Assembly: GCA_003971905.1 (NCBI GenBank)
Contig: RSEE01000009.1
Location: forward strand, 310,001 to 374,000
Reading direction: 5' to 3'
Source: Moniliella sp. 'wahieum'
Lineage: Eukaryota
Length of the DNA: 64,000 nucleotides
Shown here: positions 14,574 to 62,815 of the stretch, piece by piece
Position numbering within the stretch: position 1 is the first letter of the stretch
Layout: the number at the start of each line of letters is the position of its first letter
Notes under the pieces: model-generated
Database searches by the model: none
What the model was told of the DNA's origin: nothing
The model's input: the letters and a program-made list of their open reading frames with translations, nothing else
Position numbers and translations under genes: made by a program

Positions 14574-16949
14574 ATGGCCCCCGCTGCCCTCAACGACCCG
14601 TCCTTGACGACGACATCGACATCAGCGACATCGACTACTCCAGCATTGAAGAGCGCTATGCCGTGGATGAGCACGCCGGCCTGGACGACGTGATCGTCAT
14701 CTCTGGCCTCCCCGTCGTCGGCCCCTCCAAGCAAGATCGTCTGTTTGGCGCATTGTGAAGCGCTTCAAGGCCTTCAAGCTCGACCTTGACCCCGCCAAGT
14801 TCGACATGCCCTTTGAGGAGGGTGGCGCAGAGCCCAAGTCCAAGGGGTACGTCTCCCCCCCCTCCGTGGCCCTCAACAGGGGCTGGTGCTAACGCAGTTT
14901 CCTTTGCAGTTGGGTCTTTGTTGAGACAGAGAACGAGCAGGCGGCCTCGGCCGCCATCCGTCTCATGGATGGCGTCATGTTCGACAAGCGCTACCAGATG
15001 CACGTCAACCGCTTCACTGACATTGAGAAGCTCGCCGCCCTGTCGGATGAGTACGTGGAGCCCAAGGTGGATGAGTTCCAGCCCCGGGAGCATGCCCGCT
15101 GGTGGCTCTCCGACCCACAGACTCGCGACCAGCTGGTCATGATGAAGGACGATGTTGTCACTCTCATGTGGCACAACCGCACTGGCAACCCACTGAAATC
15201 GAGCAGCGCAAGCGCTGGACGATCGTACCTCCAATGGAGTCCCAGGGCACCTACCTCGCCACGTTCCGCTTCAGGGTGTTGCTCTGTTCTCAGGTCCCAA
15301 CTTTAGCTTCAAGCGTTTCGCTCATCCCGGTGTGTCCCTTGTCGACTTCAGCCCAGACGAGAAGTACATGGTTACTTGGTCGCCGCAGCCGATCCACGTG
15401 CCCGAGGGCATGCTCCAGGGCCCGGAGTACTTTGCTCCTCGGGACGAGGGCAACCGTGTGGCGGTATGGGACGTATCGACTGGTCACTTGCTCTCGACGT
15501 TCCCTGTGGAGAAGGAGGACCTGCCGGCGAGTGCCAAGGCAAATGGAACAGTCCTGAACATGCCTTGGCCCTTCCTCAAGTGGAGCGGAGACAGCAAGTA
15601 CTGCGCGCGTATCCAACCTGGCAAGCGTATCACTGTGTACGAACTGCCCACCATGCAGCGCCTTGACAAGAAGAGCATCGACATTGAGGGTGTTGTCGAC
15701 TTGAGTGGTGCCCGCTCGGGGACAAAGACAAGGACCAGATTGACACCTGGAACGAGGCCCAGCGGGTACGCGAGGCCGAGGCCGAGTACAAGGCCCGTGG
15801 GGAGAAGTACCCTGATGAGAAGGCGTTGCAGCGCGCTAAGACGGCCAAGAAGCCTCGCGACAACATGCTGGTCTACTGGGTGCCTGAGGTGGACAACCAA
15901 CCTGCTCGTGTGGCCGTCATGTCGATTCCCGACCGCCAGATTGTGCGGACGAAGAACCTGTTCAATGTTTCGGACTGCAAGCTGCACTGGCACCCGCAGG
16001 GCGACTACCTGTGCGTCAAGGTCGACCGGCACACGAAGACCAAGAAGAGCATCTTTACCAACCTCGAGCTGTTCAAGACCCGCGAGAAGAACTTCCTGTG
16101 GACACGCTTGAGCTCAAGGAACCCGTCACGGCCTTTGCTTGGGAACCGATGGGCAGTCACTTTGCTGCCATTACCACCAACAACCCTGCCCAGGGTGCCG
16201 CGTCGACGGCAGCGGTCCGTTCGCAGATCACGCTCTTCTACCTTGACCAGAAGAAGGGTGACTTCAAGCTTCTCAAGGTCCTAGACAACACGACGGCCAA
16301 CACGCTGTTCTGGTCGCCCAAGGGCCGCCATTTGGTCGCGGCCACGATGGGCAACGCGTCCAAGTCGGACTTGCAGTGGTACGATGTCGACTTCGGTCTG
16401 GAGACGCGCCAAGGCCAACCGGCCAACGACCCTGCTGAGGAAGTTCGCAAGATTGGCGAGGGAGAGCACGTGGGCATGACCGATTTGGAGTGGGACCCGT
16501 CGGGTCGGTACGTGGTTACCTCGGGTTCGGTTTGGCGGCAGCCGGTGGAGCATGGGTACGCCATTTGGGACTGGAAAGGCAAGCAACTGCAGCAGCACCA
16601 CCTCGACCGGTTCAAGCAAATTCTCTGGCGGCCGCGTCCCGTTTGCAGCTCAGCAAGGAGGAGCAGAAGGAGGTCCGTCGCAACTTGCGCGACCTGGGCA
16701 AGCATTCGACGAGGAGGATGCGGCAGAGGAGTCGAACGCTGCGCTGCGCAACAAGGAATTGTACGAGCGCAAGCTGCGCGAGTGGCATGCGTGGCGCCAG
16801 GGCAACCTGTCCTACCTCAACGCGGAGCGCGAGAAGCGTGGCCTTGGTGCCTTTGTTCCGTCCAGGTTGTGCTCGAGCAGGAGCAGATGGAGGATCTGCA
16901 GGAGTGGATGGAGGAGGTCGTCTCCGAGACGGTCGAGCCGGTCGAGTAA
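14574..16949 (+). CDS. PRT1: Translation initiation factor eIF3 subunit b
   Basis: [23 protein letters not shown] (RRM), [89 protein letters not shown]. Intron at about 14847-14910. Confidence 0.96.
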
Positions 16950-17399: not shown

Positions 17400-20300
17400 T
17401 TACCACTGCGCACCAAACGCGCCCAAAAAGCTGCCCCAGCCTCACCGCCCACACCCCAACCGGCGGCGCCCGAGACGCTAGCAGACCCGTTAGCACCAAT
17501 GGCATCCTCGACGCTGGCTGCGTACTTCGCAGCCTCAAGGTCGCCCTTCAACCCGGCCTCAAGGTTCGCGCCCCAGTTGACAGCACCGGAAAGGCTTGCC
17601 GAGGCCTTGGAAGCAGCGGCAGCGGCAATGCTGACTGCCTGTTGCGCCGGTGGCAACGCCACCGTCGACGTCAGCGCCGACACTGGCAGCGGCAGAGAGC
17701 ACCAGCGGATGCCTTGGCAGCAATGGCAGCCTCGACGCTCGCCGCATACTTCTTGGCAGCCTCAAGGTCGCCCTTCAGGCCAGCCTTCAGTTCAGCGCCC
17801 CACTTGACTTCACCAGACAGTTCAGCGGAGGCCTTGGCAGCGGCGGCCGTGGCAATGCTGACAGCCTGTTGCGCAACAGTAGCAACGCCACCCTTGATGC
17901 CCGCACCAATGGCAGCCTCAATGCTCGCCGCGTACTTCTTGGCAGCCGACAGGTCGCCCTTCAACCCAGCTCCAGGTCCGCGCTCCACTTGACAGCACCG
18001 GAAAGATGAGCCGAGGCCTGGGCAGCAGCGACCGTAACAATGCTGACCGCCTGTTGCGCAGTCGCAGCAGCACCACCCTCGATGGCAGCGCCGACCAGCA
18101 GCCACCGAGACGCCAGCCGATGCCTTGGCAGCAATGGCAGCCTCAACACTCGCCGCGTACTTCTTGGCAGCAGACAGGTCGCCCTTCAGGCCAGCCTCCA
18201 GTTCAGCGGACCATTGGACAGCACCGGACAGATAGACCGAGGCTTGGCAGCGGCGGCAGCGGCAATGCTGACGGCCTGTTGCGCAGCGGTAGCAACGCCC
18301 CCTGGACCTGGGCGGCGGCCGAGACGCTAGCGGATACGTTGGCAGCGATGGCAGCCTCAATGCTCGCGGCATAGTTCTTGGCAGCCGAAAGGTCGCCCTT
18401 CAGGCCAGCCACCAGTTCAGCAGACCATTGAACGGCACCGGAAAGATGAGCCGAGGCCTGGGCAGCAGCGATCGTAACAATGCTGACGGCCTGTTGCGCA
18501 GTCGCCGCAACACCACCCTCGATGCCAGCACCAATGCTAGCGCCGACACCAGCAGCCACCGAGACGCCAGCCGATGCCTTGGCAGCAATGGCAGCCTCAA
18601 TGCTCGCCGCATACTTCTTGGCAGCTGACAGGTCGCCCTTCAGGCCAGCCTCCAGTTCAGCGGACCATTGGACAGCACCGGACAGATAGACCGAGGCTTT
18701 GGCAGCGGCGGCAGCGGTAATGCTGACGGCTTGTTGCGCAGCGGTAGCAACGGCACCCTCGACATGGGCGGCAGCCGAGACGCTAGCGGATACCTTGGTG
18801 GCAATGGCAGCCTCAATGCTCGCCGCATACTTCTTCGCGGCCGAAAGGTCGCCCTTAAACCCAGCCTCGAGATCGGCGCTCCACTGGATGGTACCGGAAA
18901 GGTGGGCCGAGCCTGGGCAGCAGCAGCAGCAGCAATGCTGACAGCCTGTTGCGCAGCCGTGGCAGCGCCAGCCTGGAAACTGGCAGCAGCCGAGACGGCA
19001 GCCGATCCCTTGGCAGCAATGGCAGCCTCAATGCTCGCCTCGTACTTCTTGGCAGCCGAAAGGTCGCCCTTCAACCCAGCCTCCAGGTCCGCGCCCCACT
19101 GGATGGCACCGGAAAGATAGGCCGAGGCCTTGGCAGCAGCACCGGCGGCAATGCTGACGGCCTGTTGCGCAGCCGTGGCAGCGCCACCCTCAATGCCAGC
19201 ACCGATGCCGGCACCAATGCCGGCGCCAACACTAGCCCCGCCCGAGAGACCAGCCGACGCCTTGGCGGCTTGCGAAGCAGCGACGCTAAGCGCTTGGTGG
19301 CCACCAGCCGAGATGCCACCCTTCCAGCTGGCAGCAACGCTCGCGGCGCCAGAGACAGCGGCGGAAGCCTGAGCCGCCTCGGAGACGGCAATGCTAGCGG
19401 CATGGTGTTGACCAATCGAGAACCCGGCGGAGGCCTTGGCAGCTTCCGAAACGGCAATGCTGGCAGCGTGGTGACCCGCAGCCGAGGCGCCGGCCTGCAC
19501 CCCGGCACCGATGCTAGCAGCCCTGTGAAGCGCCTCGGACGCACTGGCAGAGAAGGCAGCACCAAAGCTAGCCGCTTCTTGAGCCGCCTGCGACGCACCG
19601 GCAGCCAACGCACCCGAGGCGGCAGCGTGGAAACCAGCGGCAATGCTGGCCGCTTCCTGCTCCGCAGCAGAGACGGCAGCGGCGATTGAGGCCTTGTAAG
19701 CCCCGCCACGGCTGGCGCCGAACTGAGCAGCAGCCGAAATGGATGCCTGGGCCGCCGCTGCGGCGCTGGCAGCGTGCTGTTCAGCAATCGAGAGGCTAGC
19801 CAGGACCGCACCGTCGCAACCCTCGGAAGCACCGACAGAGAAGCCACCGTGGGCACCTTCAGAAAAGCCGGCCGACGCCTTGGCACCTCCAGCGGCCGAG
19901 ATAGCCGCCGACTTGCCAGCCGAGAAGCCCGCCGACTTACCAGCCGAGAAGCCCGCCGAGGCACCGGCCGACTTGCCAGCCGAAATGCCTACAGACTTGC
20001 TACCGCCCAAAGCCGACCGACTTGCTACCGCCAGCGCCAAACGACGCACCAACCGATTCCGCGGCCGATGCACCAGCGGATTCACCGAGAGAAACGCTGG
20101 CATGGCCACCTGGGGCCGCGTGAGAGGAAGCCGGCTTGACGTGCTCGATAGAGGACGACAGGTGGGGCGTGAGAAGAATGGTGCGGCTTGGACGGAGAGT
20201 GGGCCGAGTGCGATTTGTGGACCTTGTGCGACTCGGAGACGAAGATGACCCTTGTGCGACGGGTGAGAAACAGGCGACGAAGCAGGGTGGCGGTGGTGGG

Positions 20301-20898
20301 AATGAGAAGAGGTGTCAGGGAGGGAGGTAGACCAGCTACGGGAAAGGCCCCAAGTAGTGGTGGTGCCAGTGCTCGTGGCAGTGCTACTCGCAGCGCTCTT
20401 GGCCGTCGAGGCGCTAGCCGCCACACTCTTCGCGGCGCTCTTGGCCGCCGAAGCGCTTGCACCCTGAAGAACGGAGACGGAGAAACCAACGTTGCCGCCG
20501 GCGTTGCCACCGCCACCAAGGACAATTCCAAACTCGCCGAACGGGTTGGTCACGATGATCGACTCGGAGAACTTGGCAGCAACTTTCCAAGAATCGGAAG
20601 CGGACGCAGCAGCAGCAGCCGTCGCACCGTTCTTGCCGATAGCAAACACCCTCGCTGCGGCTGACGTCCCATTGCTCCGAGTCGGAAAGGTCGAATCCGC
20701 CACCGATCTGCAAACCAGGCAGGTCCAAGCTTTGGCCCACTTCAAGGTGATGGCAGCCGAGGCAGCAGCGGCAGCAGCCGCATGAAAGAAGGTCACGACG
20801 AACACCGTGGTGACGACGGAGACGGGAGGCGTTGGGGTCCGCAACCACGCCCGTGGCGGCGATGGCCAGGCGAGGGTAACGAAAGGAGTGAGGTGCAT
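17400..20898 (-). CDS. Large secreted Ala/Gly/Ser-rich tandem-repeat protein (about 1150 aa), function unknown
   Basis: 752-aa ORF plus downstream frames. Hydrophobic N-terminus then RR dibasic sites (across an indel), His/Ser linker, SAGK/SAGF repeats, and 8 repeats of about 190-240 bp (AQQAVSIA..KASA.LSGA.QW.A.LEAGLKGDLSAAKKYAASIEAAIAA). Probable stop after FGAQW at 17400. Confidence 0.85.
17480..19200 (-). repeat. Eight coding tandem repeats inside the secreted Ala-rich gene
   Basis: The anchor AGGTCGCCCTT (+ strand) recurs at about 17538, 17765, 17951, 18177, 18390, 18630, 18847 and 19061. Confidence 0.92.
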
Positions 20899-22306
20899 GA
20901 GAAGAGAGTGTGTGGAAAAGAACGTGTGTAGGGGAGGTAAGGTAGGAGGTAGCCCTCTGTGCAGATACGCGGGAGGGAAGGGGGTGGAGAGATGGGGGTG
21001 GGGGGAAAGAAGAGGGAGAGGCGAAGCGACGAGAAAATGAGGGGAGGATGGGATGCTAGTGCAATATTATAGAGAGGTAAGATGATCTGGGGTCGATCGG
21101 CGGCTCACGTTGAACGATCGTTTGGCTTTGGCCCGAATGTCTGCGCGCCGGCACCCAGCGCTAGGCAATTGCAGGTAGGGCGCTGCGGCTGAGCGCAGAG
21201 CTTTAGACTCATTCAGCTCTGGCCGACTGGTGAGGCCACCGTGATTTGGCACAGTCGATCGACGGGGCGATGAAGGGAAGCGTCTGTTGTGGTGCACCCA
21301 GCGCCATATGCCTCTGCTGCGATGTGCACGCCCTGAGCCTCAGGCCTGAGGCCTCAGGCCCAGGCCTCGCGCCCCCCGGCCCTCCGGAACGCCGTGACCA
21401 GGGTTGCCTGTCCCCCAAGACCAACGGCTGGAGCTCAGCCTGAGTGCCGAGCCGATGAGTACTTAGAAACAGTAACGTGCCGCGGAGCGTAGTAAGCGCA
21501 GTAAGCACGACGCGTAGTAAGCCTGTCGGCGCACCGCAAACTAGCCACACCGGCCCAAGTGGTAATACGTACAGCGTGCTGTAATATAATGTGCTGCACT
21601 TTCAATGTGGAGCCAGCTTCTCTGGAAAGGAAAGCGAGGCGACTAGAGAAGCTAGCGACGCTGACGGAGGCAAGGGAGCACCGGGTGAGTGTGTGGTGAC
21701 AGGAGCATCGGACGGGGCAAGGGGTAGAGCGTGAGTGTGCGCCCCAGTCCCCAGTTGCACACAGTTGCACCTGGATCTGCAGCCGTCACGCGTGCGGCGG
21801 GGGACAACCAGTGGGTGGAGGTTAGGGGTGGCCGCTGGCCCGTGCCGATACCTCGGGGGATCGGTGACCGGTGGCCGGTGAAGCTGGTGAAGCACGGTGC
21901 ATGGCGGTGACGCGGTGATGCGGACATATGAGACACGATGCATGGGATCTGCGTTATGAGATGGGTGATACCGGTGGTCATCGGGAGCGCAGGGCAGTGC
22001 ACACTCTGTGCTCAATCTGGCACTCGCACGCAGCCTCAGCCTCAGCCGCTGTGGCTCGCACAGTGTACCAGTGCCAGTATGCTCAGGCAGCCAGAACAGC
22101 AGCACGCGGCCGCAGTCTTCCCATCTCCGAGTCTGGCCGGGCCGGTCGGTTGTTCCTGTAGTGTGGCTTGCACCCACTCTTCCCACTTTCGCGTGGCTTG
22201 GCAAGCGTAACCTTTCCGCGCTAGTTCCTTGCGTTTGGCGTGGAAATGTACCGATCTATACGTAATGTGGCCAATATGTTAGGCCTGTTGGCCCCGGGCC
22301 CGCATG

Positions 22307-23689
22307 TGTTGACTGTGATCTCTGGCTCCCAGTCGGTAGACCAGGTTCGCCTCGGTTCCATCGGCTTCCACGCTGACGTCCCTGCGTGTCACTGTCCTGT
22401 GCCCTGCACTCTTCCTGTGGACTCACTGCCCTGTGCCTAGTCCAGCCTCCTATATAGATGCCTCTGTACCCAGACCCAACTCTGGCTCCAATCCATCACC
22501 TTCTCCTCATCCTTCTGCCCGTCCGGCTCCCTAGGCCACAGAGCTACAATCTGATCCCCCGGAAGGGGAGCGCTCTTCAAGCAAGCCCACCCCCAAGCCT
22601 ACAAGCCCAAGCTAAGCCGCCAAGCCCACAAGACACACCGTCCTCCCGCCCAACACACCACCGCCACAATCGGCACCTTACCGCCACAATCGGCATACTA
22701 CCGCCACAATCGGCATACTACCGCCACAATCGGCACACTCGTCCCCCACAGATGGGGCAATGATTTTTAGGGACAACACACGACGGAACAAACGTGTCGG
22801 GTATCGTCAACGAGACGAAATTCCTCCAACGACAAACGGCGCAGGCGAATCGCAGAAAGCGGGGGTGGCTGCTCATCAAGTGCCCCACCCACGGCTACAC
22901 GCCCCGGATTGCCAATTCATCCGGGGCACCTGGGGAAAGGATGGGGGGGGTGGTCACCCAACTTCTTCCACTCCTCTTTTTCAACAACAAAGAGAACCCA
23001 AACAGATCAAGACGGTTGACGCATAGCGCCCGTTCATTTCCCATGCCCAATGGACCCCACTGGCACCAGGCATGCGGAACCAAACAACTACCAAACGCAT
23101 CCAATTTGATGCCAAACGACTTGGACCCGCATTTACTCCAAGTTTCCAATTTTCTTTCACTACACTATAACTGGTGCTTTTTACTTTTGCCCACCAAATC
23201 GCTTCGGGGCGCAACCCCTACTACTTTTACTTCTAAGACTTCTACAAGCATCTGGCGGTCGCACAATACACCAACCACAAGCGCTCGGCTCGTTCAGGTG
23301 TCATCCTGGACAGCGGGGGTGTAGGCCAGTCGTGTGGCCATGCACAACTCAGGCCATTCGTCCCGGTTGCCACTCAAGTCCTCCCCTCTCTACATCCACT
23401 GGCAGGAGCTCATCCCACAACCGATGTCTCCGGGTTCCCTGGCCAGCGGGGGTGTTGACTGTGATCCTCTGGCTCCCAGTCGGTAGACCAGGTTCGCCTC
23501 GGTTCCATCGGCTTCCACGCTGACGTCCTGCGTGTCACTGTCCCTGTGCCCTGCACTCTCTCCTGTGTGACTCACTGTCCCTGTGCCTAGTCCAGCCTCC
23601 TATATAGATGCCTCTGTACCCAGACCCAACTCTGGCTCCAATCCATCACCTTTCCTCATCCTTCTGCCGTCCGGCTCCCTAGGCCAACA
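22307..23689 (+). mobile_element. Complete non-autonomous miniature LTR retrotransposon (TRIM-like, family A)
   Basis: Two near-identical LTRs of about 235 bp (22307-22540 and 23453-23689; TGTTG...CAACA). 5-bp TSD GCATG at 22302-22306 and 23690-23694. G-rich tract GCGGGGG just before the 3' LTR. The internal 910 bp has no intact pol. Confidence 0.93.
22661..22740. repeat. 20-bp tandem repeat, 4 copies, inside the LTR element
   Basis: Unit CCGCCACAATCGGCATACTA at 22661, 22681, 22701 and 22721, with a variable last 5 nt. Confidence 0.95.
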
Positions 23690-25683
23690 GCATGGGCCTC
23701 GAAGCTGCCCCAACCGTGTACGGTGCTGCATTTGGATTGTTGGCGCCCAACCCAAGCCTTCTCCCTGTGCCCAGCCTACGCCCACCGAACGTCCAAACCC
23801 CCGCTCAACAATCAGTTGATTCGATCAGTGGTCCCTCCAAAGGAGCAATTCAATATTCAGTACATTCAGTACTCGGCGAGCGATCATCGATCACTGGGTC
23901 ACCACTAGTCACTGGTCACCGGCCGGTCACCACCTTCAACCTCTCAAAGGGTTCAAGCTTTTCCAACCTAATTTACACACGTCGCTTGGTAACCACGGTC
24001 GCAACCATATGCTGCCCATCCACCCGTTCTTGGAAGATCATATGGTCGATCATCAATCATCAATCATCAATCATCGACATCAATCATTAATAATCGAAAT
24101 CATCAATCATCGTGTATTCTGATCGCTGATTCATCATGGATCTTCGGTTTTTCATCAATTTCATCGCCTTTCGCCCCCCCCTCCCACACCACAGTAATGA
24201 CCCTCTCCACTGCTTCGCCCTGAGTATGACCGCGGTGACTCTGTGACTGGTGCACTTCTGAGTCGTTGAACGTTTGTTGAACGTGTTGAACGTACGTTGA
24301 GCCTTCGGGAAGCCATGATTTAACAGGTTTTGGGGTGCACGAAACGTTCTAAATATTCATCATCATGCATCGCATGTCATCGTCATCACGCACGAGTAGG
24401 ATGTGCCGACAAGAGTCACAAAATGCCGTCTAGGTAAGGATGCTATACGGATGGTACTGGCCACCTCTTGTGCTGTTCCTGTGCCGGTGATCCATTTCGC
24501 GTGGTGGTGTGAAGCTTGTGAAGGGTTCGACTGTTGACCTCTGGTCATTTATGGCCAAGGTCACTTCCGAGTGACATCATGTGTGATGCGCGTGTGATGT
24601 TTTCTGACGTGGCGTTTCCGACTCCATGATGACTTGGATTCGCCACCGCCTTAGCAATTTGATCTCCATCGACCACCATTCCCATTTGCTGCTCTTTGAG
24701 CTCTTCCTGGGCGTTAATATACACGTTCAAGCTTCAAGAGGAACAAGGAACAGTGAGATGCCGACATTTGTCACAAAGGATTCTAGGCCCTGAAAAGCTT
24801 GAAGCAGCCTGAAGCACAGAGAGGCACAGATGAAGCTTGAGATGTAGTGTCCTGATCGAGATCGACCTGAGCTTGGTCCAGGCTTGAGGGGCTGACGCTG
24901 GGTGCCCCCAGGTGGTCGGTGGCCAAAGAGCCGATAGAGAAGCTGAAAGATCGGCAGACGGAACCGAGTGCATCCCGGTGGCACTCCGAGACCTATGCCG
25001 AAAGACAGATGAATTCGATAAATGTATTGATTCCGTTGTAGAGAACTTGATTACATCCTGTGGGCCAGACGCAGGAGAAACGGGCCGGTATAGCCAGGTG
25101 TGGGTATAAGCGCTAAGCGCTAAAACCCGAGAAGCCGAAACAGTTTGGTGCAACGATGCCGAAGAGCAAACCCTGTATGACTGGACGAGCTCGATACCCC
25201 GCAGGATCTTCAAGCTTCTATTAGCTTCAATAATCTTCTAGCCTCTCAAGCTCCAAGCTTCAAGCTTCAACCTTCAAATTTCAAACTTCATAGCTTCATC
25301 GATCATCCAGTGCCACGACGATTATGCTTTGAGATCGACAACGCTCGACAGCCTGAGCTTTCACCTTTTGCGCAGTGACATTGACAGTGACTAGTGTGAG
25401 GAGTACTAGTGGTAAGGGTCGGGCGATACACGTGAGAGCCAAGTGCCAAGCACCAAGGAAAGCAAAGGATACACTGTTGGTAGCCGGCAGAGAGAAGGAG
25501 ACAGGATCGGCGAAGTGACAATATTTGCCCGGTGATTAGCTGCGAGGGCCATGCCAGAGGCTCACTAACTTAAGCACCTGTGAGTCGCTGAGCGTTGAAC
25601 CTCAGCTCAGCGCGCTGATTAATGATTCTTGCTCGGATCATTCGGTCCCGCAAACCACCGGGCCATCCAATCTGTCATAGATC

Positions 25684-28600
25684 TCATAAGTTGGCGAGTT
25701 TCACTCCCATTTCCAATTTCTCTGAACCGCCCGTCTCTCATCTCTCAGATCTCAGATCTCATCATTCTTTTCCCTGTCCTTTTGGCCCGTGCTCTGTCCA
25801 TGTTAGGCTTAGTATCCACCTGCACGAACGACATATGACACAACCTATTTTTTGCCTAGTTCCTGCATAATGCAGTGGCAACTATTACAGAACCGTGCAA
25901 TGTGTGCGATCGGGTGTGTCACAGTCGGAGAAAAGCGAGGAGGGAGACCAGAGTGGGGACTCGGCCAAGGGATATATAACAATCGTTCCTCGTTCCTGGG
26001 AAGAAACAATAGCAGATGACATGTTGCGAAGCGGAAGAACTGGGAAGGGGTAGACGGTCGGGACGAAGAAATTGGAAATGGGAGCGAGGTCAGCCAAACT
26101 ATGACAAAAACGGGCCCGAAAGGAAATGACTCTTCTCAAACGCCAAAATTTATGCCTATATGTTGTAACCAACATCTTTGACAGAGCTAAGCCTGTGGGA
26201 CAAAGAAACGCTGCAACCAAACCGGCCTGCTCATCCGGCGTGTGTGGTTTGTTGGGGCCAAACCCGCCCTTTACGGAACGAGGCCGGAAATCGCCAGCAG
26301 ATCAGGACCCTCTGGTACCCACGCCGTCCGTTCCCATACCCGAGGTGCGCGTGTGGATACGAATGAACAGGGTATAGACATCTGAGATCTGAGGGGTGAA
26401 CCATCTCCATTGAGACTCAGTACTTCATTCTTTCCAGTGCCCAAACATCTTTTGCTCGCCGCCTTGGTGCCATAGTGTCCTCGCGTTGTTGTGAACATCA
26501 ACAGGAAGAAAGGTTCTTGGCTGCGGCCCTGATACTTATAGTTTTGGAGAACAGCCAACTAACGAAGTAACTGAAGGAAGGGGATTGCTTTGGATATGCT
26601 GATGATATTCAGTCAGGCAACATGTAATGTGGTGCCTTCTACCCCAGAGGAAAAGGAGAAGCAGTCATACTGTAAACAACACATGATGAGACACACGCAC
26701 ACAAAGGCATCAATGAAGAACTACAACAGGGTCATATGCCGCGATGGGCAGACCCGTCAAGCAACATGACGCACGGACGGTATATATCTGGCTTCAGATC
26801 TTGACGGAACCGAGTGGTTAAAGAGGCGCGCAGGGAAATCCTTCTAGTGTGGGTGTTGTGTCAGGTGTCGCATGTCACACCTAGACCGCAGCCTGAGGCC
26901 CGCCAGGAGTTTGGGGGGGATGCATCCCTACATTGAAGGCCGCAAGGGTCGACTCACGGTAGGTTCGTGCTTGGGTTTGCTGCTGAATCCGAGCAGGGCT
27001 AAGGACAAGGAAATGTTTCTCAACAGTGTATGGCCGAAGGGGCTGCGTATTGTGCGGCAAGGCTGCGTAGAGGCAGTAAGAACCGTGTCTGAAGTCTTTG
27101 TTCCCACTTGGCCATGGGAAAAGTGGCAGCGGAGGACAAGGTTGCCCAAACTTGGAAGTCTAGAGCGGGAACCGGGAACATTGAAGCTGTGACGCAGAAC
27201 AAGTAAGGACTGAAAACTCCACGGATTGAATACGGGAAAAGCCGAACACTTAGCTGCTGGATAAAAAGCTGCAGCTAAAAGAGATGGCAACATGAAGAGA
27301 GAGCCGGAGAGGGGGAGAGCAGAGGAGGCAACAAAGAGAAGAAATCCGGTTTGTACCATATGGATTGAAAAAGGTGGAGCCGCCAATGGATTGAAGTATG
27401 GAAGGTGAAGACAACAATGGAACGTGGAGGAGACCCATGAACCATTGCTTGTAGTAGGCAGGGATCAAAAAAGGGAAACAACAACTCACAGTATCACTAC
27501 CGACCCCTTTTTGATAGTGTACACACGTCATCAATATCCATCGTGGCCTTGATGTCGCTGATGTCAGAAACCTTATTTATTCTGACATCCAGGATGTCAG
27601 CGCCATCTCGGCTCTCCCTTGCTATCCTCGTGTCAAGGACGCGAGTGAGGTCAAATCTGTTATCGGCGATCACAACGACAGTGCCATCAGTCTTCCAGCT
27701 TCGATGTTCAAGCAAAAGACAATGGTCCCTGGATCTGCTTATGCAACCTCGATGGTGGCCGGTCAGAGGGGTCTTTGTGCGAAGCGATGGCCTTGTGTTC
27801 CGCCGCTGTTCCGCCTCCTTGGATGTGTTTGCCGCGTATTCGCTGCTTCGCGGAAGTTGACCAGCGATGGGCCAGACATTCATCAATCACACCACTACTT
27901 TTCTTTGCATCTCGTCCAACTGAGCGATCTGTGGGCGACCGCTATGCGCCTCACTGGGAAGCCACCGGGCCCCGGCCCGGTCTGCTGAGGCTTCGCCCCA
28001 GCCTGTTGGGCTGGGTCACCGTTGCCACCGTAGCCGCCGTTCCACTGGTCCACCGGTCCACCCTTCCACGCTGGAACCCTTCCACGCTGGAGAGACAAAA
28101 TAATATCACCAACGAGGAGACCACCGGGCCTACGGCCCGGTCAGCTCTTCGCCCCAGCTCGGTGCTTGGCCGCCACCTTAGCCACCGTTCCCCCTAGAGA
28201 TACGCGCTGGCTGGGTGGACTGGAACGTGGCACGCGTCAGCTGATGTAAAAGTGTACAGGGGCGTTTCTCATGTCCCATTTTTTCACCCGGCCTCACGTA
28301 GTACGAAGAGTACTAGAGTACTGGTGGAGCTAGTGACTAGCGGCTAGTGAAGCTTGAAGCTTGAAGAGCTAGTGAAGCGAAGCTTGAAGAGATTATCGAT
28401 TGGTATGAGATCTGAGAATCGCAGTAGGCGATCAGTCGATGGCGCGCAGGCAGCGGGGTTGTACTGGTGCTCTCATGCGGCCCCGTGCGGCGCCAGCACA
28501 GGGGCTGTGTAGTGTAAGGTGCATCCCAAAGCATCTAAATACGATGGGCGTGAGAAAAATGGTCTCGTCGGCCTGAGCAAACGAGCAACTCATGTAACGC

Positions 28601-29850
28601 CGCAGGCGCAGACCGCGTACCGGAAGGCGGTACCTGAGAGCACCGCGACGCCTTTAAAGCTCTGTCAATGATAGGGATGCAGTATAGAGAAAACTAGAAC
28701 TCCACTCCTCCTCTCAGTGGCATGGTTCGGTGTAATCGTAATCTAATGTCCTTGACCCAAGTTGCAGCACGGTGTTGAGCAACCGGGTGCCTCCTTTGTT
28801 TTGTCCAACGTCTCCAATCGCCGGCGCCCCAGTATAGGGTAAAGGCGTAGTGCAAAAGCGTGGAACCTTCCTGGTCATTCCTTCTAATACTCCTTCCTGG
28901 AAGGCACAGGAGTATTCTCTAGTCTCTGTATTTTCTTGACTCTTGTTACGAGGCGCTCCGGTGTCTCCCGACGCAGAGCCCCGCATGTCATAGGCATCTC
29001 TTACTAGCACGTCAGCCTCTACATAGGCTAGCAAGAGAGAGCTTATTATCCATGCAGCTGGCATCCTTCGCAACCCGCTCAATATGATATGAGCGCATGG
29101 GTAGGATGCTTTGTTCCCATTGCGCCCACAGTCTTGGCAGAACCCTTTGTCTGCTGCGGCCCACCGGACCCCGCATCTGACAGAACAGACTGCGCTTTAT
29201 GCCTTAATATTGTAGCTCTCTCTTGCTAGGCTATGTAGAGACTGACCCCTTTGGAAGAGATTCCTACGAAATGCGGGGCTCTGCGTCAGGACATAGCGGA
29301 GCGCCCCGTAACATCTCTGTAGCTCATCCGCTCATGTGTAAAATGCAATACACCGTCAACTGCTTGCTCTCTGGTCTTTCACATCATTATTCAGCCCACC
29401 GCGGACACGGTTCCATGCGCTAGTATGTCCGTCGAAGCGGAGGGTGCACTACACAGTGCAAGTACTCGCGCTATCTGTGACAGTTGCAGCACGGTTCGAT
29501 GTGGCGTATACCAGGCCAAGCGCCAAGCGCCAAGTGGCGCCACTGTAGGGAAAAGGCGCAGCCTAAGCGCGGATGCTTCCTTATCAATCCTTCCAATATT
29601 CCTTCCTGGAGGGCAGGAGTATATTCTCTAGCCTCTGTAGCTCTCATGTGCAAATGTTTAGTAGCACTATGTCACAGTCGGGGCTAAGGTGAGGGAGACC
29701 AGGATCGGACTAGGCCAAGGGGTAGCAATCGTTCGTGGGGAAGAAGCAAGAACAGAGGACATGGTGCGAAGTGGAAGGAACAGGGAAGGAGCGAGACGCT
29801 CGAGACGAAGAAATTGGAAATGGGAGCGAGATCAGCCAAACTATGACACA
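25684..29850. repeat. Patchwork of locally duplicated and inverted, degenerate gene-like fragments
   Basis: 25980-26107 resembles 29725-29850 (direct), with an inverted partial copy at about 25684-25740. 28944-29042 is inverted against 29215-29313. About 28845-28930 resembles about 29555-29640 (direct). Confidence 0.8.
26870..28265 (-). pseudogene. Degenerate copy of a gene-plus-upstream unit also present at about 47214-48270
   Basis: Shared blocks: ggtcgactcacRgtaggttcg.gcttggg (GTGAGT donor on the - strand), ggcaaggctgcgt, cttcgccccagc..gccaccttagccaccgttcccc, tggaacgtggcacg..cagctgatgtaaaa.gtg.acaggg. Confidence 0.6.
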
Positions 29851-32730
29851 CTAGTGGCAGTGATTAAAGGCGAGGCCAACTCTTATTCATTCCACCGCCT
29901 GAACGCTTTCGGACCCCGCCAGTCCCGATATGGCCCCCATCAGACCCGATGTGGATATTTTGATGACAACCAGTGGCCTGGCGAGGCAACCAGACTGCAT
30001 CCAGGACCAGCCGGACGACATCCGCGCACACCTCGGCCATTATACGTTTGTTCACCTCCAAGCCGACTTCCAAGCCTCGGCCAGCCGCCTGTTGGAGAGC
30101 ATGACGTGCTCGACACCCCATGTGGAGGGCCATGATCCGACTCCAAGATCAGGTCGCAGACGTCCGCGAAGCCGTAAGTGGGGTAAACGAAATGCAACAT
30201 GAACTCCATGAAGCGCAAAACGGAAAGTTCTTCATGGGATCATGACGCGGACGGCCACATGTCGCAGGCCACTGCGAGCCAGGATGAAGGCGCAGAAAAG
30301 CGGACTCAAGATGCTGTTGGCCAAGTCCGCCCTATGTCTGTATGCCTCCATTTTTCATCTTCAGATGATTAAGGCTGACTACAGCATCTTTTTCCGTTTA
30401 AAGGCATTTTGGTTTTGCAGCGCAAGTACATTAAACATAGTCATGCGTTCCATGAAGGCTCCTTGGGAAGCGTCTCATCTAGGTGCCTTTGTGCGGTATG
30501 TACTATCTATCTTGAATCGCTCGAGACCACTCTGACAAAAGGAAGAAAGGAAAAGGTTGGGTTGAGCAGGAATGGGCCAAAAGTCACGTTGCCAGACCAA
30601 GGCCTCCTGGCACCGTTATCGATGCTGCAACTGATGATAAAGGGTGCCTAGGCAAAGAAGTACGGGCAAGAATAACGCTAGCCATAGCGGTCATCCGCTA
30701 CGAGATCGTAACTAATGTGCGTATCTTCATTTGGTTCCTTTCCTCTTCACGGTACGTTCTGAACGCTTCTACCCGAACCCACTTGCAGGTGGAGACGCAC
30801 CACTGGGTAAGTAAGGCCCGCGGGCCCACGTTGGGTGTCGTCAGTGTCGCCTCATTTCACAAGAAGGTTGTCAAACACAACCTGGGAGACTATGACCGCA
30901 ACCTCAACGGCGTGGAGGGCAGGATCCTTCCGATGCGCATTCCCATCCTCCTTCATCTCTGTCTCGATTTGCTGAATATACAACCAGGTGGAGAAGCTGT
31001 CTAACGGACTGTAAAACCAGTGGGGCATTTTACTGGATGCCATCCCTGAGACTCCGGTGCAACTGTACCCGCTGATCCTCGTCGCAGCGCCTGTGATACT
31101 AACCCTTCGAACACATGTGGTGACTCGGCACGATATGCAATACCAATCTATCCAAATACCAGATCTCCTTTTTTGTGGTTTATTATAGGATTAGCCAACA
31201 TTATTATTGGATAGTCCCCCAAAGAAACGTGTATGCAACAGGAGCAGTCATAGTCCTCGATGTTGACAGTGTCATCGGCGGATGCAATGATGCCATGGAA
31301 AGCTGCGGAGACATTGATGTCGGGGTACCCGGGGACGTCAATGCCATCGTTGGAGATTTATTACCCCTATGGTATCACCCACGTCAATGACACCCCCGAC
31401 GTCTAAGGCACTCACGACGTCTAAGGCATCTTTGGTAGTGCTGTCCATCGCCGATATATTTGACGTTAATCCTATCATTCATAGGGCGTAACCCGTTGGT
31501 GTTTTCCCCTTCCCTGATGTCTTTGATACCCTGAGCGAGTCTCGTATCCATGGTGCCAATGACATCCATTTCGTATCTGACATCATGGATATCACTACCG
31601 TCCCCGGCATCGAAAACAGCTGTGTTATTTACTTGATATCTATGAAACACTCATTGTCGTCCCCAATCTATGACCGTCATGATCGTCATGACGGTCATGG
31701 ATGTCAGAAAGGGGTCGGTAGTGCATTATAGAGGGTACTAGTAAAAACAGAGAAGGATGGACATGCAAAAACTTGGGAGTACAGTCACCACACAAGGGAG
31801 ACTGTGTTCCCGAGAGGGGGAAACCAGGAAACAATACAAGCGGACTCACAGCGCTCCGTTCCTAATGACTCCAGGACGACACATGCCTGTATTAAGAATA
31901 GCAGAAAGAATAGCGTACTATATCCGCACCTTTGATTGGAGAGTGTAAGCGACGACGCGAAAGCCATAGATTCGTAAGGGTGACAAGAATAAAGGGGATG
32001 TCCAGCTACGATTAGGGTGTTGATCAGGTTTGATCGGAAGGAACAAATTGGTTGATAACATAAGAGGACCGGCATACACCAGCAAAAACCCCAACGGTGT
32101 AATACCACCGGTGGAATGCATGCCGTATCAGAGCACGGATCACCTCGATCACCAGGGGGCTCACTGCGCTCATCACTGTTGCAGTGCCAACACTAGCGCG
32201 ACTCTCATATAGGCAAACACGGAGCAAGGGTGCCGCGCAAGGTCTAGTGGGCTCAAGCTTCAAGCTTCAAGCTTCAGATGAAGCTTCAGACTTCTGGTCT
32301 AAGGGATCGGAAGAGACACCACTGCATACATTGCCCTTGTGTGGCATGTGACCCGCAGGTTGCGCAGGAAGAAGCGCAAGAGTCAGGTCGACCTCGCGGC
32401 GCACACCTCGGCCCAACGTGGCCAGAGAAGAATAAAAAAGAGTACAGAGCAGATAGATGGGAATATGCATGGTGCACCAAAACGAGATGACGAGGGAATC
32501 GCGGGGGAATCACAGGGTAGCCAGGCTACGCAGGAGAAGGGAAGCGAGTATCCCAACTACCCAACCACTCAAAGAAAAGGGCCAGTTCCTATACTGGCTG
32601 GTTGGTTCCTACCTCCCTCACCCCTGAGATCCGAGAGAGGGAAACGAAACCTGAGCGGAGCGAAACGAGGATGGACGCTCGATGCGCTTCACACACGCAT
32701 CCTCAGTTTGCTTAGTTGCTCAACCCCTCC

Positions 32731-35624
<2,894 letters not shown>

Positions 35625-48270: not shown

Positions 48271-50349
48271 AATGGAGGAATATATAACTTGGGATTAGGG
48301 ATGTGCGAAGCCGGCGGGCCTTCGCTTGAATAGAACCATCTGGTGTCCACCGTAGAGCGCAAAGCCGGGCTGACGTGCATGACACCACAAGTATTCGCGA
48401 AAAGGCGCTTTTGCCAAAAAAAACCACCCACACCCGTGCACACACAAATACAAAAAATGACATCAACAAACTCGGAAATGTGATCGGTGAAGGTAGTGAA
48501 GTCTTTTACCAAATAACAGCTAGCTAGTCTGCAGCTGCAAACAAAACCGACAAAAAGGATGGGAGTTCTAAGGGCAGGACACCAGGACCCGCGGTCACGC
48601 GATCACGGGGAGCGCGCGCTTCCAGGCCAGGTCACCGGTCTCACTAGTCAGCTAGTCAGGCCTGAGGCGCTGAGGCCTGTTGGCCGCCTGAGGTGACCTC
48701 AGGCTATTATTAGTCACTAGTCACCAGTCACTAGTCACTCACCTCAGGCTGACCTCAGGCCGGCAGGATTCTCCCTAGGCCTTCTCAGATCTGTAATCGG
48801 GGCCTCAGGCCTCAGGGGCTATGACTGTCGCATGATCCACAGGCAAAGGTGTCCCAGGTCACCGGTTCCCCTCAGCGCTTCCGCGTCACCCCCTCCGGCC
48901 TGAGCCTCAGGGCCTACTGGTAAGGGCATCAGATCGACTTTAGACCTGCCATGTGACACCAAACAAAACATGCCCGCCACCACAACCACCACACCAGACC
49001 GCACCTCCGCTTCCCCTACCATTATGCATACAATGCATGATGAACTACTAGTTACTAGTTACTAAAAAATATTGTCCTTGGTCGCGGCACCTAGCTTAAG
49101 GAGCTTGAGGGGCGGGCCGTAGTACTCAGTTACGACTTAGGACTAACGAAACCCCCTTGAGCGAGTGGCCTGGTTTTGCTTATTGTGGGAAAGGAATAAG
49201 GGGGGGGGGGACATGTGACATGTGAAGAGGCCCAAAGAGCTATTGCTGTGGGCTTGTAAGCGCTGAGCCCAGCGATCGGGAAACGGGTTGGTTGGTCAAA
49301 AGGATGGTCGATGGGGGGGGTCTGGGGGTTCTTGCGCGGCTGAAAAGAACCGAGCGAAAGGGGGGGCGATCGATATGTAAGCAGTGTGGACCCTACTTGC
49401 CCTAACCTACCCAGTAAACATTGGTAACGTGTAAACAGAGGCACAGAGCTAGCGCAGGCCAGCGCTTTGCTGGTGGGGTTGCCCAGTCACGCGCACGGTC
49501 ACGCGATCGTCAAGGGTCGCCTGTCGCCGGTCTCGATCATTGCATGCGCCACGCGTCACACGTCAGGCTTCAGCGCGCCAGGCCTCAGGTCGCTCTCGGG
49601 GGGACTGGAGGAGGGCGGTGTAGTCTGGCGCTAATTTCAAAGTGTGTGGCGCACCCACCCGCGCCCTGGCGGGGTTTCAGGCAGGGGTAGATCTGCGGCG
49701 GTGACCGGTGACATGTGACAGTGACAGTGACTAGTGACATGTGACATGTCAGCATGTCGGGGAGTAGAGGCACTCAGGCGCTCAGGCCAGCGCCTCGGGC
49801 CAGGGGGCGTGGGAGGGTGTGAACGTCGGCCGAGGGCGCGTGCCGTCAGTGTGGGGCATGGGGTGCGTTGGACGCTGGGTGGCCTGCAGGCGGCACGCCG
49901 CATGGCGCTTGTGCCGACTGGCGCAGCAGCCCTGGCGCCAGCCCCCGCCCACTGTGCTCTGCGGCCTGCCGGGGGGGGGGCTGAGGTCTGAGACTCAGAT
50001 CTGAGTCTGAGGCAGCACCTTGCATCATGCATTCTGCATCATGCGTCGGCTGCCTCCCCCGTCCAACGTCCAACGTACTATAGCGTCCAGGCTGCTGCCC
50101 CGGCTGCCCCCCTGCCCAGGCACGGGAGTGCCCTGGCGCTTTGTGTTCTGCGGCTCGGCTTTGTCAGGCCCAGCGGTGATGTCTGTGGCATATGCATGGC
50201 ATGCTGCGATCAGCGCAGCAACGCTCTGTCGCTCAGCTCGCACGTCTTGATCTTCACTGGTCACCTCGACTGCTCAACGCCAACCCACACACCGTGCAAG
50301 AGGCCGTGCACGGTCTGCCCCACGCAGTGGGCCTGGCCCAAAGCCGCAT

Positions 50350-62243: not shown

Positions 62244-62815
62244 CTTGAGTCATGCATTGTAACGCCATCAGCGACTATGCCGTCCCAAAGAGCAGCAGGA
62301 AATGGACCGAGCGAACTGTGGGTAGTTGAGCGCTCGCAACCAGGTTGGTACAGTTTGGCCAGTCCACGCTCCCCCGCCAGAAATGGCTGATGGATGGGGG
62401 AGTCACTCTACGCGGCAAGCAGAAGCTCGTCACTTGGGCGGAGTAGTATTTTGACCCCCTCGGTACAGCGATTCGCGTCGGAGTTTTGAGATGGTTGGCC
62501 TCGATGCCCGATGGGCCTCTTGTGCAATATGAAATGGTCCATGTGACACGAGAAATTGAAATTGAGCGGAAGGGACATGATGCATGATGCATGATGCATG
62601 AGATCTGGGACAGTTCTCACTTGAGTGTGATATTCCGTGTCGTGATGCTTGTGACATGTGACATGTGTCATGTGACGCCGCATGTCACATGTGACACACC
62701 CTGGAGACTGAACGTTCAAATTGAACGTGGGTGGCTTGGGCTGGGGCTACGCTGAGCAACATCAGCCTCGGTCGCAGGCTCGGCCGCGTTCAGCAAGACC
62801 CGCATCCTCCCCGCC

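Follow-up and report, generated by a model that had tools for sequence, protein, structure and literature searches.

The repellents constitute a precedent in Ustilaginomycotina (PMC3133707). Rep1 of Ustilago maydis (um03924), a pre-pro-protein secreted by a smut and built of amphipathic tandem repeats, provides an amyloid-like surface-active coat, repellents forming surface-active amyloid fibrils on aerial hyphae; its 12 repeats of 34-55 aa are separated by Kex2 (PMC3133707, PMC4617103). Rsp3 of the same fungus is described as having a signal peptide, a processed N-terminus, unprocessed C-terminal repeats, length polymorphism, no GPI anchor, and Gln/Pro-rich and nine-Cys regions (PMC5923269). 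Alternating patterns of polar and apolar residues are reported to promote amyloid-like structure and to override residue propensity; they are under-represented in natural proteins, where long runs of this kind are reportedly avoided as drivers of amyloid (PMC2680634).

The locus analyzed here lies within a window of 64,000 nucleotides from the genome of Moniliella sp. 'wahieum', an Ustilaginomycotina fungus. Its predicted product resembles Rep1 in being a pre-pro-protein with a predicted signal peptide and amphipathic tandem repeats, and a similar job is proposed for it below. In contrast to Rep1, its eight repeats of 62-80 aa would stay in one chain, as the Kex2 sites between repeats are absent and only KK is found, and a further ~300 aa alternating region ahead of the repeats sets it apart from Rep1 as described. 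The plan of Rsp3 recurs as well, including the length polymorphism, whereas the cysteine and Gln/Pro-rich regions of that protein contrast with a single Cys and with the Pro-free last 846 residues read.

Gene model and comparison of two copies

The coding region runs on the minus strand from an ATG at 20898 to a stop at 17400-17402 and comprises ~1,180 codons (1,170-1,190; Table 1). A syntenic second copy (L002, G000:C38) was found in the same assembly, and no paralog was found in the genome. Between the copies, 43 codons differ synonymously and 20 non-synonymously; the resulting pN/pS of 0.17, in a comparison which took in one 22-codon segment read out of frame, indicates that the locus is under purifying selection. 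Past the first shared frame break the ratio was 0.18 (8 synonymous and 4 non-synonymous differences, 272 codons, p 0.004).

Frame breaks number 15 in the window copy and 15-19 in the second one; at least 3 are common to both, near 18301, 17963 and 17428. The neighbouring essential gene eIF3b, compared with an intact 98%-identical protein of another assembly, has 9 breaks in each copy, 4 of them shared, and the breaks in the gene under study behave like assembly errors, as those in eIF3b do; the eIF3b of a second relative is 87% identical. All 14 segments read were free of in-frame stops. The automatic frame path was off at residues 26-60 in the window copy and over part of the middle of the second copy. 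Considering these data, we regard the gene as almost certainly real.

The preliminary description had placed the gene downstream of a gene-poor, mobile element-containing region of ~11 kb. Such a region is indeed present 5' of the gene, but it is ~12 kb long, the first recognisable gene beyond it lying near 33.2 kb. Some 5.6 kb of it consists of two insertions of mobile elements which the second copy lacks, and none of fifteen upstream ORFs had a Pfam match.

Table 1. Position of the coding region, of predicted protein parts and of neighbouring elements in the window.
Feature	Position	Strand	Basis and remarks
Entire coding region	17400..20898	-	no intron required; 15 frame breaks called in window copy
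Predicted signal peptide, 20 residues	20840..20898	-	one break near 20869 in window copy; unbroken in L002
Basic pro-peptide with two terminal RR Kex2-type sites (RLRR, GVRR)	20795..20839	-	motif; Kex2 rule PMC8528282
Non-repetitive N-domain, ~97 residues	20461..20752	-	strand-like segments; turn-like joints PG, KNG, NPFG
Ser/Ala/Lys stretch, then Ser/Thr stretch	20350..20460	-	read from sequence
His/Ser/Pro-rich linker	20100..20340	-	one additional ~46-nt block in second copy
Start of alternating region, including four-residue SAGK/SAGF block	19834..20100	-	sequence and parity analysis
Non-repeated alternating middle, 211 residues	19201..19833	-	degenerate HH/QH/QE sub-repeats; 180-degree power 9.4, 0/1000 shuffles
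Eight repeats, 62-80 residues	17470..19197	-	anchors 19070, 18855, 18639, 18399, 18185, 17960, 17774, 17547
Short C-terminal tail, Trp at end, alternation retained	17400..17470	-	break near 17428 in both copies
TATA-like box, then C/T-rich leader	21064..21071	-	~165 nt ahead of ATG; read from sequence, putative function
1.39-kb TRIM-like element (context only)	22307..23690	.	long direct end repeats, TG...CA ends, 5-bp target duplication; absent from second copy
4.2-kb multi-copy element (context only)	27495..31725	.	CACTA...TAGTG inverted ends; absent from second copy

Leader, N-terminal part and C-terminus

The non-repetitive domain, the Ser/Thr stretch, the His-rich linker and the SAGK/SAGF block noted in the preliminary description were all located on the minus strand. 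The hydrophobic leader followed by RLRRHHGVRR with its RR Kex2-type sites was likewise recovered: a one-base break near 20869 parts the ATG frame from this motif in the window copy, and in the second copy both the signal peptide and the motif lie within one frame. Kex2 requires Arg at P1 (PMC8528282). The Kyte-Doolittle 11-residue means of the second copy's leader are 1.4-2.4 across the first 20 residues, and, given a putative signal peptide that reads in one frame in that copy, the protein is very probably secreted. The N-domain had no match in Pfam, PDB or Foldseek (Foldseek of the model, E 0.001); its AlphaFold model, of low confidence, forms a hairpin about NPFG.

The claimed near-absence of Cys and of a GPI-like tail was borne out, as only one Cys occurs in ~1,180 aa and the C-terminus is non-hydrophobic (mean hydropathy 0.1 for the last 15 residues; best 19-residue mean past residue 40, 1.5), according to a hydropathy heuristic applied to a tail within which the shared break near 17428 falls. 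By the same heuristic, the hydrophobic C-terminal signal of GPI-anchored fungal adhesins appears to be lacking. Hydrophobins are small proteins with an eight-cysteine pattern, and the single Cys led to rejection of this candidate.

Two-residue alternation and the repeats

From ~20100 to the stop, over ~870 residues, apolar and polar residues take turns with a period of 2. Large hydrophobes fell on one parity in 56 of 58 and 45 of 49 cases in the window copy, and in 44/46, 32/36, 24/27 and 34/35 cases in the second copy. In each of 6 stretches of the alternating region, the 180-degree power exceeded that of every one of 1000 shuffles, eIF3b and Rad54 being the valid controls, and the alternation was present both in the 211 non-repeated residues and in 6 of 6 single repeats tested. 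The parity score in frame was 4.2-6.5, as against maxima of 3.25 among 921 other stop-free windows and 2.82 among 1249 windows of 42 eIF3b proteins. DNA autocorrelation was not raised at lag 6 and slightly raised at lag 12. This strict alternation had been missed in the preliminary description.

In the repeat alignment, the face bearing Trp contains 90 large hydrophobes and 9 charged residues among 237, and the opposite face 10 and 56, respectively, among 238. The apolar face is ~40-46% Ala, with large residues rarely adjacent (0/2000 shuffles in two repeat stretches, 23/2000 in a third), and the polar face is 20-31% Ser. The last 846 residues read consist of 35% Ala, 13% Ser and 12% Gly and contain no Pro; the mean hydropathy of the repeat half is positive (0.33-0.37). 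Smut fimbriae are collagen-like in composition, and were dropped because a Gly-X-Y repeat and Pro are both absent here. As read from the residues, the period-2 pattern is an amphipathic beta-strand code, and we consider beta structure in the working state of the protein likely. In four stretches, neither hydrophobicity nor G/N/D nor charge rose above shuffle level at turn periods of 8 or 16; with no regular turn period found, no particular sheet topology is indicated.

The eight repeats of the preliminary description were confirmed, with 8 GLKGDL-type anchors in each copy. Their spacings, frame breaks allowed for, are 72, 72, 80, 72, 76, 62 and 76 residues, thus even in 7 of 7 cases; repeats 1-6 are of two types in alternation, and Trp and Tyr are conserved on the apolar face. 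The even spacings, among which only four distinct lengths occur, may partly reflect slippage in 6- or 12-nt units. A 3-nt gap near 17528 leaves repeat 8 of the window copy one codon shorter and, if real, would flip the parity in that repeat. The repeats hold KK, with KR and RR absent; a single KKR in the second copy falls in a mis-framed stretch. As to the Gly-Ala linkers said to join the repeats, GAGIGAGIGAGIEGG does exist, but once only, ahead of repeat 1, and the remaining joints are not separate spacers because they are shorter and retain the alternating pattern. The supposed linkers belong to the beta-strand code.

The earlier analogy with helical-bundle spidroins and coiled-coil silks was not upheld. 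Hymenopteran coiled-coil silks have a heptad (3.5/7) hydrophobic periodicity, whereas here the hydrophobic power at period 3.5 was reached by 211-405 of 500 shuffles and at period 7 by 62-460 of 500 (four stretches), i.e., both stayed at shuffle level, and that at period 2 was above every shuffle (n=500). In single repeats the 180-degree power was ~4- to 8-fold that at 100 degrees and, per repeat, 39-53 of 52-57 windows had a larger moment at 180 than at 100 degrees. Single-sequence AlphaFold modelling of 204 repeat residues, a check proposed at the outset, did predict two long helices, but with low confidence (pLDDT 62.8, pTM 0.32). In every repeat tested there was also a weak hydrophobic moment at 100 degrees (14-77 of 1000 free shuffles and 3-37 parity-preserving ones), which is not an alias of the face pattern, since it has no counterpart at 80 degrees. 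A helical soluble state is possible.

Searches for relatives

The 8-repeat profile found no homolog in 1.84 billion representatives. The 204-aa repeat piece had none among 8000 candidates scored, 358-2000 aa long, and the 75-aa N-domain had none up to an E of 10 in a set of 2556, both sets covering lengths away from that of the query. Of 349 and 596 pattern matches in metagenome contigs, none was confirmed, and the Atlas gave no usable match. Blanks of this kind are weak, as low-complexity queries crowd word searches and short-read assemblies break at repeats. In Pfam nothing scored above cut-off for the protein pieces, the beta-barrel domain PF22774 matching below threshold (E 0.0085, 16 bits vs 27). 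PDB sequence searches gave a best E no better than 0.12, with no spidroin among the matches, and four protein pieces matched no spidroin model up to E 1. In the genome, PF12042, looked for as a spidroin mark, had no match in a search without a positive-control signal, and hydrophobin PF01185 had none either, its absence not being established owing to the missing control signal and the noisy assembly. No description of such a fungal protein was found in the literature searched, most subscription journals being outside its scope. An Ala/Gly/Ser-rich repetitive secreted-type protein without detectable relatives, as initially suggested, is retained, and a fibre, adhesive or matrix role for it is plausible.

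Proposed assembly and alternative explanations

Taken together, the sequence data somewhat favour a single-chain, pro-peptide-processed protein assembling into two-faced beta-sheet fibres or films, and the balance tips slightly towards their being a surface fibre or film. The signal peptide would be removed and the short pro-peptide then cut by Kex2 at RR; the remainder would stay one chain, because the repeats hold KK and no KR or RR. The last ~870 residues would run as extended beta-strands, Ala/Val/Ile/Leu/Phe/Trp/Tyr making up one face and Ser/Gly/Ala/Glu/Lys/Asp/Gln the other, and large and small residues alternating on the apolar face could let two sheets interlock. On the cell wall, or where water borders on air or oil, such sheets may build amyloid-like fibres or an amphipathic film, conferring hydrophobicity or adhesion, as repellents do in U. 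maydis. The N-domain and His-rich linker might, speculatively, set solubility, anchoring or a trigger by pH or metal, and a helical state might precede assembly.

An Ala-rich rod or bundle of helices, whether as spidroin-like beads or as coiled-coil silk, with the alternation as a relic of short tandem units, would suit the Ala content, the AlphaFold helices and the non-aliased 100-degree moment, the more so as tubuliform and aciniform repeats are described as helical in solution and gaining beta-sheet in the fibre (PMC4481645). We nevertheless judge it unlikely: the heptad signal is absent, the 180-degree moment predominates in each repeat, a period of 2 scatters Trp, Tyr, Leu and Ile round a helix, and the model lacks tertiary confidence. 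A secreted emulsifier or lipid-binding belt, its amphipathic sheet coating oil droplets or waxes instead of building fibres at the cell surface, shares the face pattern and would accord with the conserved Trp and Tyr and the lack of a wall-anchoring GPI tail; an apolar face so rich in Ala is, however, weak for deep lipid insertion, and the big-small alternation suits sheet-on-sheet packing, so that this option too has a low probability.

Still less probable is a mostly unfolded, O-mannosylated surface shield held on the wall by the N-domain. Its overall plan would be that of Rsp3, whose length polymorphism (PMC5923269) is paralleled by copies of different length, and the Ser of the polar face would fit, but neither a Cys-rich nor a Gln/Pro-rich region is present, the repeat half has a positive mean hydropathy and no Pro, and a disordered shield needs no parity. 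Long alternating strands, a terminal aromatic residue matching the apolar face in phase and the sub-threshold PF22774 match could point to a membrane-inserting beta-barrel or long-hairpin pore former; with an Ala-dominated apolar face, no regular short turns, and no receptor-binding domain or structural match found, we hold this very improbable. Equally so is a decaying pseudogene or assembly artefact: the many breaks, some shared, and the lack of homologs would agree with it, whereas the pN/pS values, both overall and beyond the first shared break, the similar breaks of eIF3b and the stop-free segments speak against it.

The favoured two-faced beta-sheet assembly has a bolder form, which we advance only tentatively and consider rather doubtful: a fungal single-chain beta-sheet silk of self-interlocking amphipathic ribbons made from ~870 unbroken alternating residues, with a helical soluble state, triggered through the pro-peptide or His, and representing an independently evolved class without known relatives. 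A gene that, under purifying selection, retains such a run over ~870 residues would amount to a natural experiment on how a highly aggregation-prone chain is made and kept in check inside the secretory pathway. It would also be a third fungal surface-coating solution beside hydrophobins and Kex2-cut repellents, and a template of fungal origin for materials such as fibres, films or emulsifiers. According to the parity rule, assembly would be broken by a one-residue insertion and spared by a two-residue one.

Comparison with known systems

Designed alternating peptides include EAK16 and RADA16. Such peptides, following the rule given in PMC2680634, and the Gly-X pattern of Bombyx fibroin, as mentioned in PMC5099703, convert a period-2 binary pattern into two-faced beta-sheets, as proposed here; the peptides are short and fibroin forms Gly-versus-Ala crystals, whereas the new protein is a natural apolar-versus-polar chain of ~870 residues. 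The lacewing egg-stalk cross-beta silks MalXB1/2 and ChryC1-3 are likewise Ser/Gly/Ala-rich, secreted and of even-numbered periodicity, with self-assembling beta structure (PMC5485732). The composition of the last 846 residues read shows the same richness, but the 16-residue period of these silks contrasts with none at 8 or 16 and a face of large hydrophobes. Barnacle cement proteins AaCP19 and Aa43, with Gly/Ala/Ser-rich repeated domains of ~60-170 aa proposed to form adhesive nanofibres, are alike in composition; as described, however, their low-complexity blocks alternate with charged complex blocks, whereas here alternation is residue by residue, with no such blocks (PMC5099703). Ala/Ser-rich repeats and a possible helix-to-sheet switch are shared with the spidroins TuSp1 and AcSp1, which are reported to be of 250-500 kDa, with ~200-aa helical-bundle repeats making up at least 90% of the chain and conserved terminal domains (PMC4481645); the new protein, in contrast, has ~1,180 aa, with repeats of 62-80 aa in about half of it and neither spidroin terminal domains nor an RP1-2 repeat domain found. 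The closer analogies are, in our view, beta-sheet systems, namely repellents, fibroin-type and cross-beta silks and barnacle cement, and the best reading is of a protein which would work like the Ustilago repellents or beta-silks and is not a member of either.

Locus, second gene copy and reality of the gene

The window covers positions 310001-374000 of contig C9 (G000) in a 69.5-Mb assembly of 223 contigs. The candidate gene is neighboured there by an SNF2-family gene, which we take to be Rad54-like, and by an eIF3b gene placed tail to tail with it about 450 nt apart. The eIF3b product showed 98% and 87% identity to two eIF3b proteins used for comparison, P0001 and P0002, and a piece of it showed 57-64% identity to the proteins of Tilletiaria, Ceraceosorus, Violaceomyces, Malassezia and Testicularia; these values place the organism within the Ustilaginomycotina but outside all five genera. 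A second copy of the gene, 95% identical with gaps, is carried by contig C38 of the same assembly, with which 58 kb of the window are collinear at approximately 2-5% substitutions. Such collinearity suggests that the assembly is diploid or hybrid and includes both haplotypes, C38 being related to the window as a second haplotype or homeologue would be. Within eIF3b, the copies differ by only 5 substitutions (2 per kb vs 11-20 per kb in the neighbours).

The two copies of the candidate gene are separated by 42 gap runs, 39 of them of 1-2 nt, and share at least three frame breaks (near 18301, 17963 and 17428). Shared breaks are expected from systematic sequencing error, because the eIF3b control behaves likewise: against the intact 695-aa P0001 each copy has nine breaks, all deletions, four being common to both. 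In the second copy a single frame runs from the ATG through the hydrophobic leader to RLRRHHGVRR. Among 1033 codons compared between the copies, 43 differences are synonymous and 20 non-synonymous (pN/pS 0.17, p 7e-12), and in the 272 codons past the first shared break these numbered 8 and 4 (pN/pS 0.18, p 0.004). Judged from these sequences, the gene is real.

The 12 kb upstream contain a TRIM-like and a CACTA-ended element, both absent from the second copy. At least about 50 near-identical copies of the former (96-99% identity) were found, several in tandem with a common end repeat, and it looks recently active. Near-full copies of the latter occur on more than 10 contigs; its ORFs had no Pfam match. 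The preliminary description likened this gene-poor region to the surroundings of adhesin genes; the mobile elements are indeed present, but, as the region is partly a recent insertion, its length points only faintly to an adhesin-like locus.

Features of the window and parts of the predicted protein
Feature	Window position (strand)	Description
Collinear block	206-58091	matches G000:C38:270008-322283
eIF3b	14880-16949
Candidate gene	17400-20898 (-)	~1,180 codons
Signal peptide		20 aa
Pro-peptide		basic, two RR sites
N-domain		~97 aa, non-repetitive; then Ser/Thr stretch, then His-rich linker
SAGK/SAGF block		four-residue unit; then 211 non-repeated residues
Eight repeats		then short C-terminal tail, last residue Trp
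TRIM-like element	22307-23690	1.39 kb, long direct end repeats, TG...CA ends, 5-bp target duplication
CACTA-ended element	27495-31725	4.2 kb, CACTA...TAGTG inverted ends
Nested 180-bp repeat	~29669-29850	in CACTA-ended element
7-bp tandem arrays	21337-21368, 24049-24111, 25246-25298, 48711-48739, 49708-49749, 62576-62601	short, non-coding
6-nt tandem array	32909-33058	minus strand reads Ala-Pro/Ala-Ser; 3-prime of a presumably SRPK-like kinase gene

Composition and processing of the predicted protein

The sequence elements described previously were confirmed. From 20007 onward (846 residues) the protein consists of 35% Ala, 13% Ser and 12% Gly, with one Cys and no Pro. The eight repeat anchors of each copy are spaced by 215/216, 216/215, 240, 214, 225/227, 186 and 227/228 nt, which resolve to 72, 72, 80, 72, 76, 62 and 76 residues, provided that the breaks are deletions, like all those of eIF3b. 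KK is present in all eight repeats of the second copy and in 6/8 of the window copy, while KR and RR are absent from the repeats of both; as Kex2 requires Arg at P1, the repeats should stay uncut. No hydrophobic C-terminal tail was found.

Period-2 alternation and predicted structure

Alternation was measured in stretches that, within a single copy, read through in one frame. Large hydrophobes fell on one parity (odd or even position) in 56/58 (20007-18910) and 45/49 (18907-18305) cases in the window, and in 44/46, 32/36, 24/27 and 34/35 in the second copy. At 180 degrees (period 2) the spectrum peaked above all 1000 shuffles in 6/6 such stretches; no such peak was seen in the two N-domain stretches or in the eIF3b and Rad54 controls. 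The 100-residue parity score amounted to 4.2-6.5 in frame, the maximum being 3.25 among 921 other stop-free windows, mostly non-coding frames, and 2.82 among 1249 windows of 42 eIF3b proteins. On the apolar face large-large neighbour pairs were fewer than expected (7 vs 19.7, 5 vs 12.6 and 10 vs 16.9).

The alternation is independent of duplication, because it is kept in the 211 non-repeated residues and in each of six single repeats tested (the other two of the eight are broken in both copies). Nor is it merely a young microsatellite, as the DNA autocorrelates less at lag 6 (0.28-0.29) than at lag 3, and at lag 12 (0.37-0.39) only slightly more. In the 58-residue SAG block, likely derived from 12-nt units, it was not significant (76/1000 shuffles). 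The Gly-Ala joints, formerly regarded as spacers, would be strand, since the alternation continues through them.

A helical structure, as proposed initially, agrees with the AlphaFold model of one sequence, which consists of a pair of long helices at pTM 0.32 and pLDDT 62.8 (43-55 in the four remaining models), and with a 100-degree moment in all six repeats. The power of this moment (1.6-2.4, as opposed to 8.7-12.3 at 180 degrees) is reached by 14-77 of 1000 shuffles; the moment has no mirror at 80 degrees and, the repeats being paralogous, amounts to about one observation. Period 3.6 also scores, but this is a harmonic that the 72-residue unit produces. Further results speak against the β-reading: no turn-marking period of 8 or 16 was detected, QQ and KK, 38 residues apart, are the only regular interruptions, and repeat 8 is one codon shorter in the window copy. 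The N-domain model (pLDDT 52) has three strands around NPFG, and a structural search with it gave no match. The initial interpretation holds in part, as regards a repetitive secreted-type protein; β-structure is more likely than the helical one.

Proposed mechanism and comparison with known systems

We infer every structural and functional step of the mechanism. Patterns of alternating polar and apolar residues are stated to favour amyloid-like structure, to be rare in natural proteins and to override the propensities of single residues (PMC2680634). The working state would most likely be a two-faced β-sheet, which either stacks face to face to build fibres or spreads at an interface as a film, a job which U. 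maydis repellents do as Kex2-released peptides (PMC3133707, PMC4617103). The precursor may be held in solution by its richness in Ala and by the weak helical moment; a helix-to-sheet switch of this kind is known in spidroins (PMC4481645). That the protein is a single-chain fungal β-silk seems rather unlikely.

Sequence, profile, Pfam, metagenome and PDB searches, limited by low complexity and poor lineage sampling, yielded no homolog, nor was a paralog found in the genome. The candidate lacks a defining feature of each family tested: Kex2 sites between repeats (repellents), the 16-residue period (lacewing cross-β silk), the heptad (coiled-coil silks), spidroin domains, the cysteine pattern of hydrophobins and the GPI tail of anchored adhesins. 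In overall layout it resembles Rsp3 (PMC5923269). It would belong among fungal surface-active or fibre-forming β-sheet proteins, distinguished by the exceptional length of its binary pattern, and would work most like repellents, lacewing cross-β silk (PMC5485732) and barnacle Gly/Ser-rich cement proteins (PMC5099703).
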